Source: Acaryochloridaceae cyanobacterium VAR_48_metabat_390
GTDB lineage: Bacteria; Cyanobacteriota; Cyanobacteriia; Thermosynechococcales; Thermosynechococcaceae
Length of the DNA: 64,000 bases
NCBI GenBank assembly: GCA_031422435.1
Contig: JANPLU010000128.1
Coordinates: 1 to 64,000 of the forward strand
Direction of reading: 5' to 3'
Shown piece after piece: positions 56,291 through 64,000 of the stretch (positions are counted from its first letter, which is position 1; every line of letters begins with the position of its first letter). The position numbers and the translations under genes are program-made. The notes under the pieces are model-generated. The model worked only from the letters and a program-made list of their open reading frames with translations, had not been told where the DNA came from and searched no databases.

Positions 56291-57175
56291 ATGGCAAGTA
56301 CACAGGCTTTATTGACCCTAGTAGATTCTTTCCCTGAAGCGTTTTTTGACCCAGAGGGGGCGCAGGCTAGCGTTAGCAGCGCAACGCAAGGGAGCCAGCA
56401 CCAAGAAGCAGCTCGCATTCAGACGCTTTTAGATTTAGCGACGGAATTTCCTGAAGCGTTTTCAGACCCAGAGGCACCTGTGGCAACATCGGCTGTAGTG
56501 GCAGATGCTCCTGCACCGGAGGTTCAGCCTGTAGTGGAAGCAGCCGCAGCTCCAACCGTAGCGACAAGTTTACCTGTTGGATACGAATTCTCGCTCAACC
56601 GCACAATTTCTACATTTACTTGGGGCAATATTGAGGCGCACTTGAGCTATTCGACGGCAGGGCTAGGGTCGCTGTGGCTGGTGGCAGGCAAGTCGGGGAC
56701 GGAGATTCAGTCGCTGTGTGAGGCAATCTGTCGGTTGACGAATTTGCTGTTGACTTATCAGGTGCCTGTTACAGAAATTGTGCGACAGTTGCGCGGCATT
56801 CGCGGGGCGGATTCTGAAGGGCTTGGCCCCCATCGGGTGTTGGGGCTGGCGGATCTGATTGGGAAGGTGTTGCAGGAGGCTCCGGCGACGTTGACGGTTG
56901 GGGCTGCTGCTCCGGTGGCGGGGGCACGGGCTGTGACGGCAGCGGCGACTGTGCTGGAACCTGCGAAGGTTGAGGCTGTGATGCCTTTAAGCGATTCTCA
57001 GAATGGCAATTCTGTTGTGAAGTCTGGTAGCGAGTTGTTATCGCCTTCATTACTCGATTTATCGGAGAATAATCATCGGATGGGGCTTTGTGCTGAGTGT
57101 GGCTCTGAGTTACAGGCAATGAATGGTTGTTCGGGTGGGGCTTGTCTGGTATGTGGTTTTAGTAGCTGTTCATAA
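56291..57175 (+). CDS. NrdJb-like TSCPD domain protein with C-terminal zinc ribbon
   Basis: GKSG.E..S..EAI.RL..L.L, I..QLRGIRG, D.IGK.L, CAECG...GC....CLVCGFSSC. Confidence 0.75.
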   Translation: MASTQALLTLVDSFPEAFFDPEGAQASVSSATQGSQHQEAARIQTLLDLATEFPEAFSDPEAPVATSAVVADAPAPEVQPVVEAAAAPTVATSLPVGYEFSLNRTISTFTWGNIEAHLSYSTAGLGSLWLVAGKSGTEIQSLCEAICRLTNLLLTYQVPVTEIVRQLRGIRGADSEGLGPHRVLGLADLIGKVLQEAPATLTVGAAAPVAGARAVTAAATVLEPAKVEAVMPLSDSQNGNSVVKSGSELLSPSLLDLSENNHRMGLCAECGSELQAMNGCSGGACLVCGFSSCS

Positions 57176-57859
57176 GTGCTGGTCTAATACTTCATCTAAT
57201 CTGTTTTTAAACGCAGTTAAGCTAGGCATGTCGGTAATTCGACCAATGTCTATATTGCCTTGATCAATTAGGTCATTCAGCAAATGACTTGTGCCTGGTG
57301 TTTCAAGACATTGTTCTAGCTGACCTTTTAATGAATTAGGGGAAGCATCATTACCTGATTCATCTTCCAGTTGAACACAATTTTGATATTGATTACGCAA
57401 GGCACAAAGAATCCAAGCCTCGGATTTTGGTTTTGGAATCATTGGAACACCATTAGAAACTCCTTCGGCCTCAAAACCATCTAGCATGGATTGCTTTTTT
57501 TCGTTCCATTCTCCTCTATTGGAGCTTGCCGTGCCATCAGCATCCCTAAATAAAACCAGGATGACTGGAGTTCCATCTTCATTACTTTTTGTCTTTGCCA
57601 AAATGGCTAAAGCTCTTGCATTATTATAATAATAGCCAGTTTCTATCTTCCGCTTTTTCCCCTTTCTAGAAAGTGGCTTAATATGTTGTTTTGCTACTTC
57701 AGCAAGTCTTTGTTTGTTGACAATAGTATAATGGCCTAAATCAATGAGAGAATAACTGCTGCGTCTAGCAATCCAGTTATCTATCAACTTTGCCATAGGG
57801 CCAATTGCATCATCAATGCCTATGTCAGATGCCCCCTCTCCACTTAGCAATAAAAACAT
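57170..57859 (-). CDS. Putative TOPRIM-fold protein partnered with an ABC ATPase
   Basis: LSGEGASD, FRDADG (DxD), PKPKSEAWIL; AT-rich; directly downstream of the ATPase. Confidence 0.6.
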   Translation of the reverse strand: MFLLLSGEGASDIGIDDAIGPMAKLIDNWIARRSSYSLIDLGHYTIVNKQRLAEVAKQHIKPLSRKGKKRKIETGYYYNNARALAILAKTKSNEDGTPVILVLFRDADGTASSNRGEWNEKKQSMLDGFEAEGVSNGVPMIPKPKSEAWILCALRNQYQNCVQLEDESGNDASPNSLKGQLEQCLETPGTSHLLNDLIDQGNIDIGRITDMPSLTAFKNRLDEVLDQHL

Positions 57860-57875
57860 ATTTAAGGATGAATAA

Positions 57876-59042
57876 TTAACTTGATTTTCGTAGCATGGAA
57901 ATCTCCTTAAAAAGTTGACTTAGAATAGTATCTTCATAAACTTCTCCAGGCCCCATAACAGTTAACTTTTCACGCATAGAAGGAATATCAAAAAGACGGA
58001 TAGCTTGTGTTGCTCCATTTTCTCCTTTATATAAATAGACAACACCTTCAATTGCAACCTCATCTTCTAGATAGTTTAAGACCATTGGGCTATGAGTGGT
58101 TACAAGAACTTGTGGAGAAGCTTGCACTAAGCTGTCCACAAGAAACTCAACTAACTCTGGATTAATACCGTTCTCTATTTCATCAAGTAGCAAAAAACTT
58201 TGCTCTTTAGACAGTTGAGCAAATACTGCCAGCATACGAAGAAATCCATCAGCAACATGCCGTGCTTCTGTTTTTAATAGAGTCCCTTCAAATTGCTCTT
58301 GAACTATAAGTTGCTTCCATCCAGAACGCAAGACGGATGTATCAAGTAGCCTGAGTTGTGGATAGAGTCCAGACATTTTTTTCTGAATAACTTCTCGCCG
58401 ATCTTCCCCTACTTCATGTAAAAATGCTGACAGCCTCTCACCACCTAAGCCTAGACTATTCTCTGCATCTCTAGTACGTTGCCTTAACAATTCAGGAGCC
58501 AAAAGATCTAGTGAATGTAAATCTTCAAAGAATTTTTTGATTTCAAGAATTTCTTTAGTTAACTTAGATTCTTTGTACCCTGACAATAATGATCCTTGAT
58601 ATTCAAATTCAATAACTCCAGATGAGCTGCGTACACGTTCTTGGTCTTGCTCAGCTAAAGAACGAATTACATACTTTCCATCTTCTACTTTTAGAATTAA
58701 ATTCTTATTCCAATCTACTCGCTCGAAGGTGCAACGTAATGTTTGCCGATTAAATCTTGCAGTCCATTTAATCTCCAATTCATTATCATGAAGGAGTAAA
58801 ATCTCAAATTCAATATTATTTCTTGGAGTTAATTTTGAGTTGATATCAGATGCTTCCCACTGTCTTCTCTTCAACCATTTATCTAAATCACCTTTAACCT
58901 GTTGAGACAGAAAATCAAAAAATTGTAATACCGTTGACTTGCCTGAACCATTTAGCCCAACTAAACAGTTAAATTTAGATAATGGCAATTCAAAGTTCAC
59001 TAAGGATTTGAAGTTATCAACTTTTATGTTTTTGATTCTCAT
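57876..59042 (-). CDS. ABC-type (AAA_15/AAA_21-like) ATPase
   Basis: NFKSL, GLNGSGKST, ADG..R, LLLDEIENGI.P, VTTHSP. Confidence 0.85.
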   Translation of the reverse strand: MRIKNIKVDNFKSLVNFELPLSKFNCLVGLNGSGKSTVLQFFDFLSQQVKGDLDKWLKRRQWEASDINSKLTPRNNIEFEILLLHDNELEIKWTARFNRQTLRCTFERVDWNKNLILKVEDGKYVIRSLAEQDQERVRSSSGVIEFEYQGSLLSGYKESKLTKEILEIKKFFEDLHSLDLLAPELLRQRTRDAENSLGLGGERLSAFLHEVGEDRREVIQKKMSGLYPQLRLLDTSVLRSGWKQLIVQEQFEGTLLKTEARHVADGFLRMLAVFAQLSKEQSFLLLDEIENGINPELVEFLVDSLVQASPQVLVTTHSPMVLNYLEDEVAIEGVVYLYKGENGATQAIRLFDIPSMREKLTVMGPGEVYEDTILSQLFKEISMLRKSS

Positions 59043-59098
59043 ATCTGTAATTTCTAATACTTGCTGCCCACAGATCACACGAAATTATATAAAGTAAT

Positions 59099-59310
59099 TC
59101 TGTAGTCAATCGCAGAAAATTTTTTCGTTGTGCTTACTCTAGAGGCAAGCTTGAACATGTCCATTTTTTAGATCTGAAAATTCTCTACAACTTTAAAGAC
59201 ACTAACATTTTCTGCGAACAACTTCAAAACATTGTTCATCCCAATTCTCATCCCTCAAATATAAGGGTAATCCATCCAACGTGCAAAATCATGACTCAAC
59301 CCATATAATC
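59099..59310 (-). pseudogene. Degenerate copy of the DUF433 gene at 61286-61510
   Basis: Colinear nucleotide similarity (agtcaatcgc, actaac.ttttctgc.aaca, aattctcatccctc.aata.aagg) with indels and stops. Confidence 0.7.
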
Positions 59311-59355
59311 CATTGTTGGAATAGTCCTGATCGCCATGCTTGAGGTGGTTTCGGT

Positions 59356-59397
59356 GTGATCGCCTTGCCCAAGATTTTGCTTGAGCGGGGCGATCGC
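59356..59397 (+). repeat. 42-bp HIP1-capped hairpin repeat, copy 1
   Basis: gtgatcgccttgcccaagattttgcttgagcggggcgatcgc. Confidence 0.9.
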
Positions 59398-59462
59398 TGT
59401 GTGTGTTGGTAGTTTGAGGGAGATCGTTTAAACAAGTATTATGAGGGCTGTGGGCGATCGCA

Positions 59463-59780
59463 TCACTCAACAACCGTCGCTGTCCTTTTAGTAGTAGTCG
59501 CTAAAACTTCTAAAATCTTTGGAGCTAAAGGCTTTAAATCCGCCAAACGATTAGAGAACGCATGCAAAACAATAACTGCAATCCCAAACTGCGGTAAATT
59601 CTGTTGAAATGATAAATTCCGATCAACCGTAATAAAAACATCAAACTCCACCTCGGCAAGCGCGAGGAGTTGACCATTTTTAATTTCAGCCCATCCTATC
59701 TGCGGGACAGTTTTTACCTCATAGCCAATAAACTCTTTGGCCAACCTACGATCAATACATTCATCCAAAAGTAGCCTCAC
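59463..59780 (-). CDS. DUF5615 PIN-like toxin (cassette 1)
   Basis: GTG start, RLLLDECI, KNG.LL..A...FDVFITVDRNL..QQN. Confidence 0.85.
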   Translation of the reverse strand: MRLLLDECIDRRLAKEFIGYEVKTVPQIGWAEIKNGQLLALAEVEFDVFITVDRNLSFQQNLPQFGIAVIVLHAFSNRLADLKPLAPKILEVLATTTKRTATVVE

Positions 59781-59781
59781 C

Positions 59782-60000
59782 TCAAGCCCCCACCCCAATA
59801 AGCTGTTCTCCAGCCTCTTCCAACAAAGCAATGACTTGTTCCCTAGTCACAGTAGGGAATCCGTCTAAAAAGTCATCAATCGACTCTCCTGCTTTGAGGT
59901 AATCCATCAACGTCTGTACCGGAACTCTCGTTCCAGTGAAAACTGGCGTACCACCCATCACGTCAGCAGATACGCTAATCATCAAAGAATCTTTCAGCAT
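59782..60000 (-). CDS. DUF433 antitoxin (cassette 1)
   Basis: MGGTPVF.GTRVPV..L.DYL.AG.SID.FL..FPTV.REQ. Confidence 0.88.
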   Translation of the reverse strand: MLKDSLMISVSADVMGGTPVFTGTRVPVQTLMDYLKAGESIDDFLDGFPTVTREQVIALLEEAGEQLIGVGA

Positions 60001-60080
60001 TAGTCTTTGACCTCTAGCCTTTATACTGACTAGTTTATCAAGGGTTGAGCAGGGCGGTCGCACTTCTAGCAAACGGAGAA

Positions 60081-60122
60081 GCGATCACCTTGCCTAAGAT
60101 TTTGCTGACGTGGGGCAATCTC
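60081..60122 (+). repeat. 42-bp HIP1-capped hairpin repeat, copy 2 (most degenerate)
   Basis: gcgatcaccttgcctaagattttgctgacgtggggcaatctc. Confidence 0.8.
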
Positions 60123-60208
60123 CCTATGTCTTGTTCGTTTGAAGGCGATCGCATAGTCCAAGATGGCGATCATCCATAATAGATAAAGCACCATTGCATC
60201 AAACGGTC

Positions 60209-60454
60209 ATGGACTGGAAACTTCATATTCATTCAGACCCCAATATTTTACTTGGCAAGCCCACCGTCAAAGGGACGCGGCTGTCTGTTGAATTTATACT
60301 GGGCTTATTTGCTGAAGGGTGGACAGAACAACAAATTCTAGAAAACTACCCTACCCTAAATGCGATCGCCCTTCAAGCCATTTTTGCATTTGCCGCAGAG
60401 TGCCTCAAAGAAGACGTATTTTATACATCACTCCTGACCGCTGAGGCAGGCTAG
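60209..60454 (+). CDS. DUF433 antitoxin (cassette 2, opposite orientation)
   Basis: I.SDP.IL.GKPTVKGTRLSVEFIL, GW...QILENYPTL. Confidence 0.88.
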   Translation: MDWKLHIHSDPNILLGKPTVKGTRLSVEFILGLFAEGWTEQQILENYPTLNAIALQAIFAFAAECLKEDVFYTSLLTAEAG

Positions 60455-60456
60455 CA

Positions 60457-60814
60457 ATGCGGCTTCTAGCAAACGAAAATTTTCCCTTGCTCAGCGTCAA
60501 GTTAATACGGCAAACAGGCTATGACATTGCTTCAATTACTAGGGATTCTCCAGGGATAGAAGATATAGAGGTTTTGACCCGTGCGGTCAACGAACAAAGA
60601 GATTATCCTGACCTTTGACCGTGATTACGGCGAACTCATCTATCGCTTACGAAAGCCATCGCCAAGAGGAGTGATCTATCTTCGGTTTCGTCCCCGTTCC
60701 CCAGAAGAACCAGCCGCAATATGGCTAAACCTCTCGCAAACTGAGGGACTACAATTCGAGGGACGGTTTACGGTTGTCGAGCGCGATCAGATTCGCCAGC
60801 GTCCTCTTCCGTAG
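60457..60814 (+). pseudogene. DUF5615 PIN-like toxin split by a +1 frameshift near 60601 (cassette 2)
   Basis: MRLLANENFP...RAVNEQR continues out of frame as IILTFDRDYGEL; one extra G in AGA-G-ATT. Confidence 0.8.
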
Positions 60815-60861
60815 TTTGATGAACTCATTAATATGAGATCGCACTTCTGGCAAGTAGCAAG

Positions 60862-60903
60862 GCGATCGCCTTGCCCAAGATTTTGCTTGAGCGGGGCGAT
60901 CGC
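60862..60903 (+). repeat. 42-bp HIP1-capped hairpin repeat, copy 3
   Basis: gcgatcgccttgcccaagattttgcttgagcggggcgatcgc. Confidence 0.9.
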
Positions 60904-60944
60904 CTTATCAAATCCTTACCTGAAGCAAGCAAACGACAGAGCAT

Positions 60945-61289
60945 TTAGAGAGAACTATCATTAATCTCTATAATAATTTCGCCCTCCTGCAATTTGCCCA
61001 ATGCATCCGTCAAAGTTTTTGAAATAAGTTGATGTAAATTACGATTCGTCACGTTGCCACAGGTCAGCCAAATTATTTGAGGCGGCATACCTAAGCGGCA
61101 GACTAGATCGATGAAGTCACTGTCCTTCGTCATAATTACAGCATTAGCAGCTCGTGCCGCCTCAAAAATTTCAATATCCTTTGCGTCTCGTAAGCCAAGA
61201 TCTTTAAGAGAAAACGCTTCCACCTCAAACTTACTATTCAACCAACTTGCCAAAGTTGGAGGTAATTGAGCATCAACCCAGATCTTCAT
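60945..61289 (-). CDS. DUF5615 PIN-like toxin (cassette 3)
   Basis: MKIWVDAQLPP, D.EIF..A, IMTKDSDF, PPQIIWLTCGN. Confidence 0.88.
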   Translation of the reverse strand: MKIWVDAQLPPTLASWLNSKFEVEAFSLKDLGLRDAKDIEIFEAARAANAVIMTKDSDFIDLVCRLGMPPQIIWLTCGNVTNRNLHQLISKTLTDALGKLQEGEIIIEINDSSL

Positions 61290-61510
61290 GCAGTCAATCG
61301 CAAAAAATCTGTCCGTCGCGCCGCAAACAGAAGACAAGCCTGTATATCTTCATTCTCAAGATCGGGAAAATCTTCCAAAATCTCAGAGAAACTAACGTTT
61401 TCTGCCAACATCTCTAAAATGTCGCTCACCCGAATTCTCATCCCTCTAATACAAGGACGACCACCACACTGACCGGGAACCTGAGTAATACGAGACAATA
61501 GATTATTCAT
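61286..61510 (-). CDS. DUF433 antitoxin (cassette 3)
   Basis: RIT..PGQCGGRPCIRGMRIRV.DIL, EILEDFPDLE.EDI.ACL.FAA; ATGA overlap with the toxin. Confidence 0.88.
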   Translation of the reverse strand: MNNLLSRITQVPGQCGGRPCIRGMRIRVSDILEMLAENVSFSEILEDFPDLENEDIQACLLFAARRTDFLRLTA

Positions 61511-61581
61511 TCGTGTCTCAAGTTAACACCTTCGTATCATACTGCGTCAATGGCGATCACCCTGTGTGAAGTGCTTCGGGT

Positions 61582-61623
61582 TTGATCGCCTTGCCCAAGA
61601 TTTTGCTTGCGTGGGGCGATCGC
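61582..61623 (+). repeat. 42-bp HIP1-capped hairpin repeat, copy 4
   Basis: ttgatcgccttgcccaagattttgcttgcgtggggcgatcgc. Confidence 0.9.
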
Positions 61624-61635
61624 ATTCCCTTGAGT

Positions 61636-62970
61636 CTAGAGTGTGAACGTCGCTAGATCTTCATCCACCGTAGCGTTTTGGGCGATCAACGATTTTGTAG
61701 CTGGTGTTTTTGCCATGCTCACCCCAGACTCTACTCTAATATCCGTTTGGGAAATCAGCTCTGACACTTGTGCTTGAGGGTTCTGGTCAAGGACAGCTAA
61801 CAGGTTTACAAACGCCGTAATAGTATTGCGAGGGGTACGAAAATAAGCATCTCCAATGCGCTGGGAGCAGTGAGCCATAAAGTTCTGGATGCCTCCATCT
61901 GAGATGAGATAGTCTTTGACCTCCCCAGCAGCATAGACGTAACGAATCTTACCCAGCAGCACATAAAGATCCTCTGGGCTGAGATTGGTTAATCGTAAGA
62001 CTGGACCGCTGTAGTCTACCAGTCCATTCGCTGCAAAGGTATTTACTGCCAACCTTGACTGTAGCGCCGGGTAGCTATAAAGCCCTCGGCGAGTATCGGT
62101 CAAAAACTCAGGAGTGCCGCCAAGCAGTACGCCCAGCCCCACAGCGGTTCCTTGCAGCACATCATTCAAAATTCGCAAGATTTGTTCGTAGTTGCTTTTG
62201 CGCGCTTGGACGTTAGACAGCTTAAATAAATTGACCAATTCATCCCAGCAGATTAGTAAGCCTCCGTAGCCAGACAGCCGCACCAACTGCGCCATCAGCT
62301 TGAGCTGATCGTATACATTCTCATCGTCTACGATGGTGCGAACGCCCAAGGCCTGCCGCGCCTCAAGCTTTGAACTAAACTCCCCCCGCAGCCATCGGAC
62401 AGCACTTGTTTTAAGGGTTTCATCGCTGGCATCATGACCCCGCCAGTAGGCTGCAATCACTTCGGCAAAATCATAACCGCCTACCATTTCTGAGAGATGC
62501 GCTAGCCGCTCCCGAATAACGGCTTCGGGACTAAGACTGCGATCGCGGCCTTCACTAATGGCTGAGGTCACAAAGCGCTCAACCACACTTGCCAAGGCAC
62601 CCCCCTCTGGCTTAGTGCGAGTGGAGAGATTCCGCATGAGTTCGGTGTAGAGCGATCGCGCTTGGCCTCCGGTGGCGTGGAGTCGGCGGTCAGGAGTAAG
62701 ATCTGCATGAACCGTCACCAGCTTTTCCTGAAGAGCAATAGAGCGCACCAAAGCCAGAAAAAAAGTTTTACCAGAGCCATACTCGCCAATAACAAACCGA
62801 ATAGTAGAGCCGCCCTCCGCAATCCGCTTCACATCTTGAATGAGCGCCTCTAGCTCGCGCGCTCGCCCCACCTGAATCAGCGGCAAACCCGTACGAGGCA
62901 CCACCCCAGCTCGCAGAGACTGAATCACCGCATCGCGCTCTTTCACCTTAATTACGGGGATTTTAGTCAC
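61636..62970 (-). CDS. DUF2791 / BrxD-like P-loop ATPase
   Basis: SLRAGVVP..GL..IQVGR, GEYGSGKTF, DELVNL, NYEQIL..LND, GLYSY.AL.SRL, RTPR. Confidence 0.82.
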   Translation of the reverse strand: MTKIPVIKVKERDAVIQSLRAGVVPRTGLPLIQVGRARELEALIQDVKRIAEGGSTIRFVIGEYGSGKTFFLALVRSIALQEKLVTVHADLTPDRRLHATGGQARSLYTELMRNLSTRTKPEGGALASVVERFVTSAISEGRDRSLSPEAVIRERLAHLSEMVGGYDFAEVIAAYWRGHDASDETLKTSAVRWLRGEFSSKLEARQALGVRTIVDDENVYDQLKLMAQLVRLSGYGGLLICWDELVNLFKLSNVQARKSNYEQILRILNDVLQGTAVGLGVLLGGTPEFLTDTRRGLYSYPALQSRLAVNTFAANGLVDYSGPVLRLTNLSPEDLYVLLGKIRYVYAAGEVKDYLISDGGIQNFMAHCSQRIGDAYFRTPRNTITAFVNLLAVLDQNPQAQVSELISQTDIRVESGVSMAKTPATKSLIAQNATVDEDLATFTL

Positions 62971-63701
62971 GACAGCAGCTCCTGCAAAATATCTAGATTC
63001 ACTTCAAGGGGGTCTTCTCCCTCCGTTAAGGCTTCGTCACAACGCTCAAAGGCGGCTTCATTAATCAGCTCTAGGGCACCATCTAACAGAAGGTCTAACC
63101 GTTGAGCAACCCCCATAAGATCTGCGCGGCTCCATAGAGTTTTCTGTGTCAGGGTTTTCAGAAATGTGGCATGGGCAGCATCTAAGCTTAGAGTGGTTTC
63201 AGGAGATGAAGGGATAGAAGGTGCCTCAATGAAAACAGACTGAAGGAGCTGAGTGGCTTCTGCTGATTCACGCTCCTTGGCTTGAACAAGATCTAAGTTC
63301 AGGCTAAAGGGTAGCGATACCTCTAATTTAGATTCAGAAAAAGGCATTGAATCGCCAGCAGGTTCAGCCGTAATGTCAACTTTAGGCGTTCGTTTTTTTC
63401 GGGCACGCTTTTGGGTTAGCTCAGCAACCTGGGCGACGAGATCAGCATTATCAGCCTGGAGCTGAACCAGCTCAATCGCGCGATCGGTGGCAATCTGGTT
63501 GAGTTCAGCGACCCGCGTTTCTAGAGCGGTGCGTTGAGTGAGAGCAGCCGTTAGCTCCCGCTGAACTTTGTCCAACTGCTGTTGAAGCTGCTGTGTATTA
63601 TTTTGGGACTGTTTGACCGTAATCTCAACACGCTGGGCTTGCGTGCGCCACCAATAGAGACCTATTCCCAACGCTCCACCAATCCAAATATCTCGCAGCA
63701 T
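62967..63701 (-). CDS. TerB-C domain protein with N-terminal TM and coiled coil
   Basis: ES.....L..VF, LD..H..FL..L.....W, L..DGA.E.INE.AF...DE.L.EG.DP.EVN; overlaps the ATPase start. Confidence 0.7.
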   Translation of the reverse strand: MLRDIWIGGALGIGLYWWRTQAQRVEITVKQSQNNTQQLQQQLDKVQRELTAALTQRTALETRVAELNQIATDRAIELVQLQADNADLVAQVAELTQKRARKKRTPKVDITAEPAGDSMPFSESKLEVSLPFSLNLDLVQAKERESAEATQLLQSVFIEAPSIPSSPETTLSLDAAHATFLKTLTQKTLWSRADLMGVAQRLDLLLDGALELINEAAFERCDEALTEGEDPLEVNLDILQELLS

Positions 63702-63808
63702 GTTGATTTATATTCATCAAGTTGCAACACACAATAGCGCAAACTGTGTGCAATAAGCCTGATTTAGGGTTGTACCGCTTAATATCAGCGCGTTGACTTA
63801 AACCAATG

Positions 63809-64000
63809 CTAGTCAATATTGATTGACTGAGGCCCACTACCGTTGCTGCCATTACCCTCAGACGGCATATTAGAAGGCGACACCGTCACGCCTAGCTCTC
63901 GATCTAACCAAGTTCTGACCGGATCTTCAGATAGATTGAGTCGCAGTAAGCCTGATGCAAACCCGCCCAGAAACGCAACAGGCTTCTGAACTAGTTCTTG
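63809..64000 (-). CDS. Conserved cyanobacterial hypothetical protein (5' truncated by window edge)
   Basis: Frame reads QELVQKPVAFLGGFASGLLRLNLSEDPVRTWL...GPQSINID*; not in the ORF track. Confidence 0.7.
   Translation of the reverse strand, partial: QELVQKPVAFLGGFASGLLRLNLSEDPVRTWLDRELGVTVSPSNMPSEGNGSNGSGPQSINID

Follow-up and report, generated by a model that had tools for sequence, protein, structure and literature searches.

Short modules tied precisely to the palindrome HIP1 (GCGATCGC) are known from heterocystous cyanobacteria, in which SDR5, a 21-nt module, is inserted precisely between nucleotides 3 and 4 of HIP1 (PMC4390886, PMC13756078). As summarized in these papers and in PMC5861425, SDR5 is dispersed and confined to Nostocaceae, and other HIP1-rich genomes are said to have no known SDR-like repeat. 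The function of HIP1 itself is described as unresolved (PMC5861425), and newer work points to roles in DNA uptake and recombination (PMC13756078; 10.1101/2024.09.10.611283). Specifically, excision between HIP1 sites in Synechococcus (Gupta 1993, smtB; Robinson 1997) is cited in PMC13756078, PMC4390886 and PMC5861425, the first two of which also cite HIP1-linked site-specific recombination (Akiyama 1998), and HIP1 placed in homology arms is described as raising integration in a Chi-like manner in PCC 7002 (bioRxiv 10.1101/2024.09.10.611283). Here we describe an array of toxin-antitoxin (TA) cassettes in which HIP1 sites mark the cassette ends and in which four spacers, lying between positions 59327 and 61623, are chains of HIP1 or near-HIP1 sites separated by short modules. 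The array is contained in a stretch of 64,000 nt from the genome of the Acaryochloridaceae cyanobacterium VAR_48_metabat_390 (contig JANPLU010000128.1, positions 1 to 64,000), which we refer to throughout as the window.

We found 72 copies of HIP1 in the window, against 1.25 expected by shuffling, and 3,856 in the 3.70-Mb genome. The four spacers, 604 nt in total, contain six exact copies where 0.63 would be expected from the genome average (Poisson P = 5e-5), a density about ten times that average, together with nine near-HIP1 sites. A first-pass annotation, made from the letters of the window alone, had distinguished four modules between these sites, A to D, and the coordinates it gave for them are correct (Table 1). 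Module B, 26 nt long, is indeed present on the + strand in all four spacers, starting at 59364, 60089, 60870 and 61590, with 26, 21, 26 and 24 of its 26 positions identical to the first copy. To judge the remaining modules, we compared the pairs of A, C and D with random pairs of HIP1-flanking segments from the same genome (7,693 segments, 200,000 draws). Their similarity lies above chance, with P values from 1e-3 to 1e-4: the two A modules (60062 versus 60843) are identical at 12 of 19 positions (P = 1.1e-3), the two C modules (59398 versus 60123) at 15 of 22 (P = 1.1e-4) and the two D modules (59335 versus 61561) at 14 of 21 (P = 1.8e-4). All four modules are thus real, but D belongs with the short C type as one of its variants and is not a separate module. 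Similarly, the modules originally listed for each spacer are all present, but spacer 1 holds a fourth module, B3, and spacer 3 holds a decayed C (60904-25; 11 of 22 identities, counted by eye) after which there is no HIP1, giving the corrected orders D-B-C-B3, A-B-C, A-B-(C) and D-B.

The four spacers are probably diverged copies of one array-specific repeat, divided by HIP1 into intervals of 18-26 nt, the different module sets having arisen through deletion, and sometimes duplication, between copies of HIP1. When the spacers of seven genomes were cut at HIP1 and near-HIP1 sites, we obtained 30 chains with 71 classifiable modules falling into seven families, namely the long modules B1, B2 and B3 (25-27 nt), the short modules C1, C2 (the D of the window) and C3 (20-23 nt), and A (18-19 nt). 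The fuller form of the repeat can be written (A)-(C2 or D)-B1-C1-(B3 or B2)-(C3), in which HIP1 separates all neighbouring modules; long and short modules alternate along it, one HIP1 site occurs every 28-34 nt, and the repeats of individual spacers are 65-190 nt in length. Mean pairwise identity is 0.84 for B1, 0.83 for C2 and 0.67-0.75 for the other families. The collinear order is kept in 34 of the 41 adjacencies between classified modules, a split tallied by eye. The orders D-B-C, A-B-C, A-B and D-B had been read in the first-pass annotation as the outcome of combinatorial exchange; all of them are collinear subsets of A-D-B-C(-B3), that is, of one ancestral repeat, and therefore deletion is enough and shuffling is not required. 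The recurrence of fixed module lengths holds across the window and its relatives (26 nt for B1, with one exception among 21 copies; 20 nt for all seven copies of C3; 22 nt for 12 of the 16 copies of C1), but rather than being a special signal it is simply what would be expected of homologous stretches of 20-26 nt at 67-84% identity.

The joints between cassettes and spacers were read outward from conserved anchors inside each cassette end, and the copies were compared across genomes of this genus; this anchored inspection replaced a noisy count of breakpoints at raw BLAST ends. Cassette homology stopped at HIP1, or at a site no more than two mismatches from it, in 20 of 22 ends (11 of them exact HIP1; counted by eye), the two exceptions falling at the decayed left end of the cassette gamma, and the modules beyond the cassette-end HIP1 differed between genomes. 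Spacers therefore differ by whole modules with HIP1 or near-HIP1 at the joints, as had been proposed, and in these cassette-end comparisons a module together with one HIP1 is either there or missing as a whole at a HIP1 site. Within the window, too, the limits of homology sit at such sites, and not away from them as the refutation named in the first-pass annotation would require. For example, the homology of spacers 1 and 4 reaches into the DUF433 gene on the left and stops exactly at the HIP1 that follows B (59397 and 61623, respectively), and the A-B homology of spacers 2 and 3 begins at a near-HIP1 site. Comparison between strains showed an identical cassette end joined via HIP1 to different modules in relatives, the breakpoints with respect to the window lying after C1 in genome G001, after B1 in G007 and at the first HIP1 in G004. 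In G001 (L016, ~2340-2440), moreover, codons 1 to ~21 of vapC are followed by an internal HIP1 and then by the B1 of a later spacer, and the corresponding HIP1 sites are 1,596 bp apart in G009. The crossover lies inside the shared GCGATCGC, vapC is truncated in G001, and a single HIP1 stands at the joint where two HIP1 flank the segment in the longer form, which is the arrangement expected of HIP1-to-HIP1 excision.

These losses resemble the published excisions in Synechococcus, as the latter are described by the papers citing them, in that two copies of HIP1 are the ends of the deletion, here for modules of ~30 nt and for one loss of 1.6 kb. They differ in that the published excisions took place in the laboratory, each at a single locus, whereas here a natural array found across a genus is concerned and HIP1 marks the ends of cassettes. 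Exchange at HIP1 had been put forward as bearing on the function of the palindrome, but excision between HIP1 copies has already been published (cited in PMC13756078 and PMC4390886). For HIP1-bounded cassettes or TA arrays, and for a HIP1-jointed TA array with a conserved hairpin core, no earlier description turned up in the literature searched, in which most subscription journals are lacking.

In our view, the array probably preserves a natural history of HIP1 as a joint for recombination. The spacers contain no other long direct repeat than HIP1, which is often extended to GGCGATCGCC, and it would accordingly serve as microhomology for RecA-independent slippage or illegitimate recombination, by which whole modules would be removed or copied; it may also be a Chi-like stimulator of homologous recombination between spacers. 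Through recombination at HIP1, spacers would be trimmed by whole modules and cassettes would be joined, deleted or swapped. The excision between HIP1 copies cited in PMC13756078 and PMC4390886 and the Chi-like integration described in 10.1101/2024.09.10.611283 fit such a mechanism. There is also a likeness to replacement flexible genomic islands and to homology-flanked exchange by natural transformation, as described in PMC4033161 and PMC12614218, in which variable genes occupy a fixed locus with conserved bounds usable as homology arms; the difference is that the arms here are HIP1-studded repeats of 65-190 nt inside the island. Taken further, the HIP1-studded repeats would be the joints of an integrase-free cassette system, and cyanobacteria would build and reshuffle TA and defence arrays by HIP1 recombination, a proposal that we put forward only tentatively and regard as doubtful. 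If it is true, a 30-year-old orphan palindrome would gain a role as a site of cassette attachment or exchange; if slippage alone is at work, the array would be a tidy though modest illustration of a process already known. The array constitutes a compact natural experiment on the function of HIP1, with ~30 spacers in seven genomes and a HIP1 at nearly every rearrangement joint, and it offers defined substrates with which HIP1 as mere microhomology, HIP1 as a Chi-like stimulator and HIP1 as a true recombination site could be told apart.

Several observations weigh against module loss and gain at HIP1 as the account of the spacers. Seven of the 41 adjacencies are not collinear and need tandem extension or duplication, or exchange. 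Only for the truncation of vapC is the direction of the change, insertion or deletion, clear. Some breaks lie elsewhere than at HIP1. After its last repeat, G009 (L011, 12300-12440) ends in a cassette remnant, a second, partial copy of the PIN_3 cassette comprising the end of the antitoxin gene and the start of the toxin gene, and the joint of this remnant falls within a B2 module. One B3 module of G002 contains an internal 21-nt duplication, the long module at 60153-65 has an internal truncation, and no HIP1 marks the left edge of the island, or variable region, at 57175. In the raw BLAST comparison, 27 of 76 alignment ends lay at HIP1 in both partners, a count in which internal alignment breaks are included unsorted. 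In addition, neither the promoter scan nor the terminator scan rose above shuffled controls.

Instead of deletion and duplication at HIP1, a dedicated exchange independent of an integrase might be supposed, in which some enzyme cuts or pairs HIP1 or the B1 core and moves TA cassettes, the chains being attachment sites or scars; we regard this as unlikely. Cassette order does differ between genomes, being gamma'-alpha-beta-gamma in the window, gamma-alpha in G007, gamma-beta in G004 and VapBC-alpha in G003, but these orders could also have arisen if an ancestral array containing duplicates lost different cassettes in different lineages. The joining of the same cassette end via HIP1 to different modules would suit such an exchange as well, but the breakpoints are found at several HIP1 sites along the chain and not at one core or at the centre of B1. 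The layout of B1 is that of a tyrosine-recombinase core, its 6-nt centre, asymmetric and almost without variation, being flanked by inverted arms of 10 nt each; all 24 copies are co-oriented within their own locus, with cassettes in either direction, and HIP1-linked site-specific recombination has been reported for PCC 7002 (cited in PMC4390886). Against this, no integron integrase or other tyrosine recombinase is present on the 145-kb contig that carries the array, and no tyrosine recombinase was seen near the array of G009. Also speaking against a dedicated enzyme, HIP1 excision is reportedly about as frequent in E. coli as in Synechococcus PCC 7942, to go by the title of Robinson 1997.

Together with its two HIP1 sites, B1 is predicted to fold into a 42-nt hairpin of 17 pairs that has a 6-nt loop and a single internal mismatch. 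Pairing is found in 91% of cells, against 30-48% when the partners are slid by one to three columns, and in spacer 3 the single-strand fold has a free energy of -21.7 kcal/mol (z = -4.3). Five pairs are changed on both sides, a number reached in none of 500 shuffles, but each of these changes is confined to one sequence and, the copies being related, the shuffle control overstates the support, a further point against our interpretation; the covariation support for the hairpin is modest. Among 24 aligned copies, the ATTTTG loop and the inner stem hardly vary, and the hairpin is probably under selection. B1 may perhaps block transcription in both directions between cassettes or bind a protein. 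So constant a loop suggests that some factor recognizes it and would not be expected of a plain terminator.

The modules could in principle be expression signals under selection, B1 being a terminator and C1 or B1 supplying a -35 box for a -10 box (CATAAT) that starts the + strand cassettes, in which case the patterns would reflect function. Three unrelated + strand cassettes start with CATAATAGA at 1-6 nt from the boundary HIP1, and in the VapBC cassettes TTGGTA or TTGGTC in C1 lies 17 nt upstream of CATAATAGA; the promoter scan, however, did not call the proposed CATAAT sites. B1 lies downstream of a gene end in three of the four window spacers, and the B1 copies that are most decayed are those between divergent cassettes, as might be expected of a terminator, but the hairpin is followed by no T-run or U-run and the terminator scan did not call B1. 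The counts of the promoter scan did not exceed those of shuffled sequences (6 versus 4.4 ± 1.5, and 3 versus 5.1 ± 2.3), nor did those of the terminator scan. Expression signals would also leave the position of the joints at HIP1 unexplained. We hold this explanation to be quite improbable.

In the rest of the genome there is no further copy of module B at up to six mismatches and no copy of any of the seven families at up to 20% mismatches. The first-pass annotation had envisaged families of HIP1-bounded modules recurring genome-wide, but none was found: HIP1-to-HIP1 gaps of up to 80 nt number 209 genome-wide, fewer than the 338 expected under a Poisson model, their length distribution peaks neither at 22 nor at 26 nt, and 21 further near-HIP1 chains, which are unrelated to the spacer modules, lie mostly within coding DNA. 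For relatives, the locus was searched against 41 related genomes and a 78-nt B1-C1 unit against 48 genomes of the family. The 78-nt query found strong matches in six of the nine other genomes of the genus; of the remaining three, one gave a weak match and two, which are fragmented assemblies, none. Among the other 38 genomes of the family it gave weak matches of 19-35 nt only, with E values of 9e-4 or worse, and no HIP1 chains surround the same TA genes in more distant relatives (the loci of G011, G031, G021 and G013). In the complete genome G009 all six B1-C1 matches lie within 3.8 kb at one locus. When a degenerate B1 pattern was scanned over ~185,000 genomes, one per species, genuine copies were restricted to records with the titles Altericista sp., Thermosynechococcaceae, Thermosynechococcus sp. 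or Acaryochloridaceae; hits beyond the genus were at chance level, apart from an unrelated repeat in Xenococcaceae, and no true copy occurred among metagenome contigs, plasmids and phages. The inter-cassette repeat is thus confined to one array and to one cyanobacterial genus.

This distribution bears on the idea that tiny SDR5-like mobile elements inserted one by one into HIP1 and so formed the module chains. The likeness lies in modules of ~21 nt tied precisely to HIP1 (Elhai 2008, as described in PMC4390886, PMC5861425 and PMC13756078), and the precise insertion of the 21-nt SDR5 inside HIP1 reported in PMC4390886 and PMC13756078 might have its counterpart in the presence or absence, as one unit, of each module and one HIP1 at a HIP1 site, the modules here being bracketed by whole HIP1 sites. 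Compared with those descriptions, however, the modules of the array occur in one array only, in a set order, and in a lineage that is non-heterocystous by record titles. Dispersal would be expected of a mobile element; with none of the seven families found elsewhere in the genome, and the B1-C1 matches of G009 in one locus, a mobile element is therefore unlikely. The relative order of the modules is, moreover, largely fixed. Taken together, an origin of the SDR5 kind is highly improbable.

The attC sites of integrons are palindromes with a length range of 57-141 nt. If the repeats were such sites, the array would be a CALIN, an attC cluster that lacks an integrase of its own and relies in trans on an intI gene elsewhere in the genome. 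The genome does encode an integron-type integrase (TIGR02249, 484 bits versus a cut-off of 265, contig C129), four of five relatives checked carry intI above the cut-off, TA cassette arrays with species-specific repeats are typical of chromosomal integrons, and Cyanobacteria are listed among the phyla with integrons (PMC4889954). As sedentary chromosomal integrons and CALIN are described in the same paper (Cury 2016), the likeness extends to a fixed chromosomal site, many small cassettes that are mostly TA genes, a lineage-specific, co-oriented repeat foldable as an imperfect hairpin, and cassette content and order that vary among related genomes. The defining features of attC given there, however, are conserved AAC and GTT triplets in the R'' and R' boxes, a boundary at G|TT and an imperfect palindrome that has extrahelical bases and a variable terminal structure of 20-100 nt. 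In 24 aligned B1 copies and their flanks, neither AAC nor GTT is found among the invariant or 90%-conserved columns, the cassette joints are at GCGATCGC and not at G|TT, and B1 with its HIP1 sites is a 42-nt structure with a 6-nt loop in place of the variable terminal structure. The repeat is, in addition, a chain of short modules, whereas that of integrons is one palindrome, and the contig of the array carries no integrase. The DNA adjacent to intI in three genomes has boxes of the GTTAG/ATAAC type and no HIP1 modules, and G009 keeps a five-repeat array with only broken pieces of intI, the nearest ~440 kb away. We therefore give almost no credence to an attC identity, and the locus is better described as a TA cassette array built like a chromosomal integron yet without attC features, which makes it relevant to the assembly of cyanobacterial defence islands.

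Around the integrase genes themselves, no clear attC array was seen in the 7-kb stretch beside one broken intI, and in three genomes the contigs end less than 1 kb from intI. The intact integrase gene of the genome (contig C129, 1204-2178, - strand) adjoins mutS and has a GTTAGAC box upstream; the contig ends ~400 nt past the start of intI, as do those of two relatives (L026 and L027), which suggests an unassembled repeat or cassette array.

Among other candidates, a dispersed repeat, MITE (miniature inverted-repeat transposable element) or REP (repetitive extragenic palindrome) was rejected with zero copies beyond the array, and an Rfam scan of 57000-64000 gave a single hit at chance level and no known RNA family. 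A likeness to coding DNA stands only as a curiosity: A-HIP1-B1 read in frame (ALLANGEAITLPKILL...) resembles the N-terminus of a DUF5615 toxin, but four such translations have no Pfam match even at E <=10, and the 64-nt spacing of the B1-plus-C1 unit (8+26+8+22) is not a multiple of three. Thirteen nucleotides of module A (60063-75) are identical to 60463-75 at the start of the beta toxin gene, which may be chance or a very old relic.

Table 1. Spacer chains, TA cassettes and flanking genes, with positions in the window.
Feature	Position	Strand	Content
Spacer 1 chain, first half	59327..59397	+	near-HIP1 59327-34; D (C2 type) 59335-55; near-HIP1 59356-63; B1 59364-89; HIP1 59390-97
Spacer 1 chain, second half	59398..59461	+	C1 59398-419; near-HIP1 59420-27; B3 59428-53; HIP1 59454-61
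Spacer 2 chain, first half	60054..60114	+	near-HIP1 60054-61; A 60062-80; near-HIP1 60081-88; B1 (5 mismatches) 60089-114
Spacer 2 chain, second half	60115..60173	+	decayed site 60115-22; C1 60123-44; HIP1 60145-52; truncated long module 60153-65; near-HIP1 60166-73
Spacer 3 chain	60835..60925	+	near-HIP1 60835-42; A 60843-61; HIP1 60862-69; B1 60870-95; HIP1 60896-903; decayed C1 60904-25
Spacer 4 chain	61553..61623	+	near-HIP1 61553-60; D (C2) 61561-81; near-HIP1 61582-89; B1 61590-615; HIP1 61616-23
PDC-M25-like defence genes, left flank	57170..59078	-	B 57170-57859; A 57876-59078; PADLOC candidate system
Broken gamma-type DUF433 antitoxin remnant	59101..59320	-	71-79% identity with 61289-61456
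Cassette alpha	59463..60001	-	DUF5615 PIN-like toxin 59463-59831; DUF433 antitoxin 59782 to ~60001
Cassette beta	60209..60814	+	DUF433 60209-60454; DUF5615 toxin 60457-60814
Cassette gamma	60945..61510	-	DUF5615/PIN_10 toxin 60945-61337; DUF433 antitoxin 61286-61510
Shango-type genes, right flank	61636..63701	-	SngB 61636-62970 (Pfam BrxC_BrxD); SngA-like with TerB_C domain 62967-63701

The array of the window is flanked on the left by PDC-M25-like genes (PADLOC match values of 1.8e-87 for PDC-M25B and 1.3e-156 for PDC-M25A, the A gene also matching Pfam AAA_21/AAA_15) and on the right by Shango genes (7.6e-176 for SngB and 3.2e-25 for SngA), and the TA pairs therefore lie within a defence island. 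The right end of the array is the HIP1 of spacer 4, 12 nt ahead of the sngB stop codon. The gamma-like remnant on the left has five stops in its translation, and the longest open reading frame (ORF) of the alpha antitoxin extends to 60072. In cassette beta, the antitoxin gene is intact, and the toxin gene has a 1-nt insertion near 60600 relative to the intact copy of 118 aa in G002, resulting in two overlapping ORFs. Across the genomes, at least eight TA gene families lie between the repeats, and the cassette types comprise DUF433/DUF5615 (three subtypes), two VapBC types, ParDE, HigBA, HicAB, BrnT and DUF6887/6888. A conserved gene of 292-294 aa precedes the island in the window and the arrays of G009 and G002; in the latter two genomes, the first slot after it is occupied by other genes (an AAA_22 ATPase and a pentapeptide-repeat protein).

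A different repeat, present in a Xenococcaceae metagenome-assembled genome (L048) and, with identical sequence, in metagenome contigs (L055-L058, L063 and L064), resembles the left arm and loop of B1. It has a fixed end (...gaacggttac) with unrelated DNA beyond and often lies ~55 nt from contig ends; it has the look of a mobile element's end.

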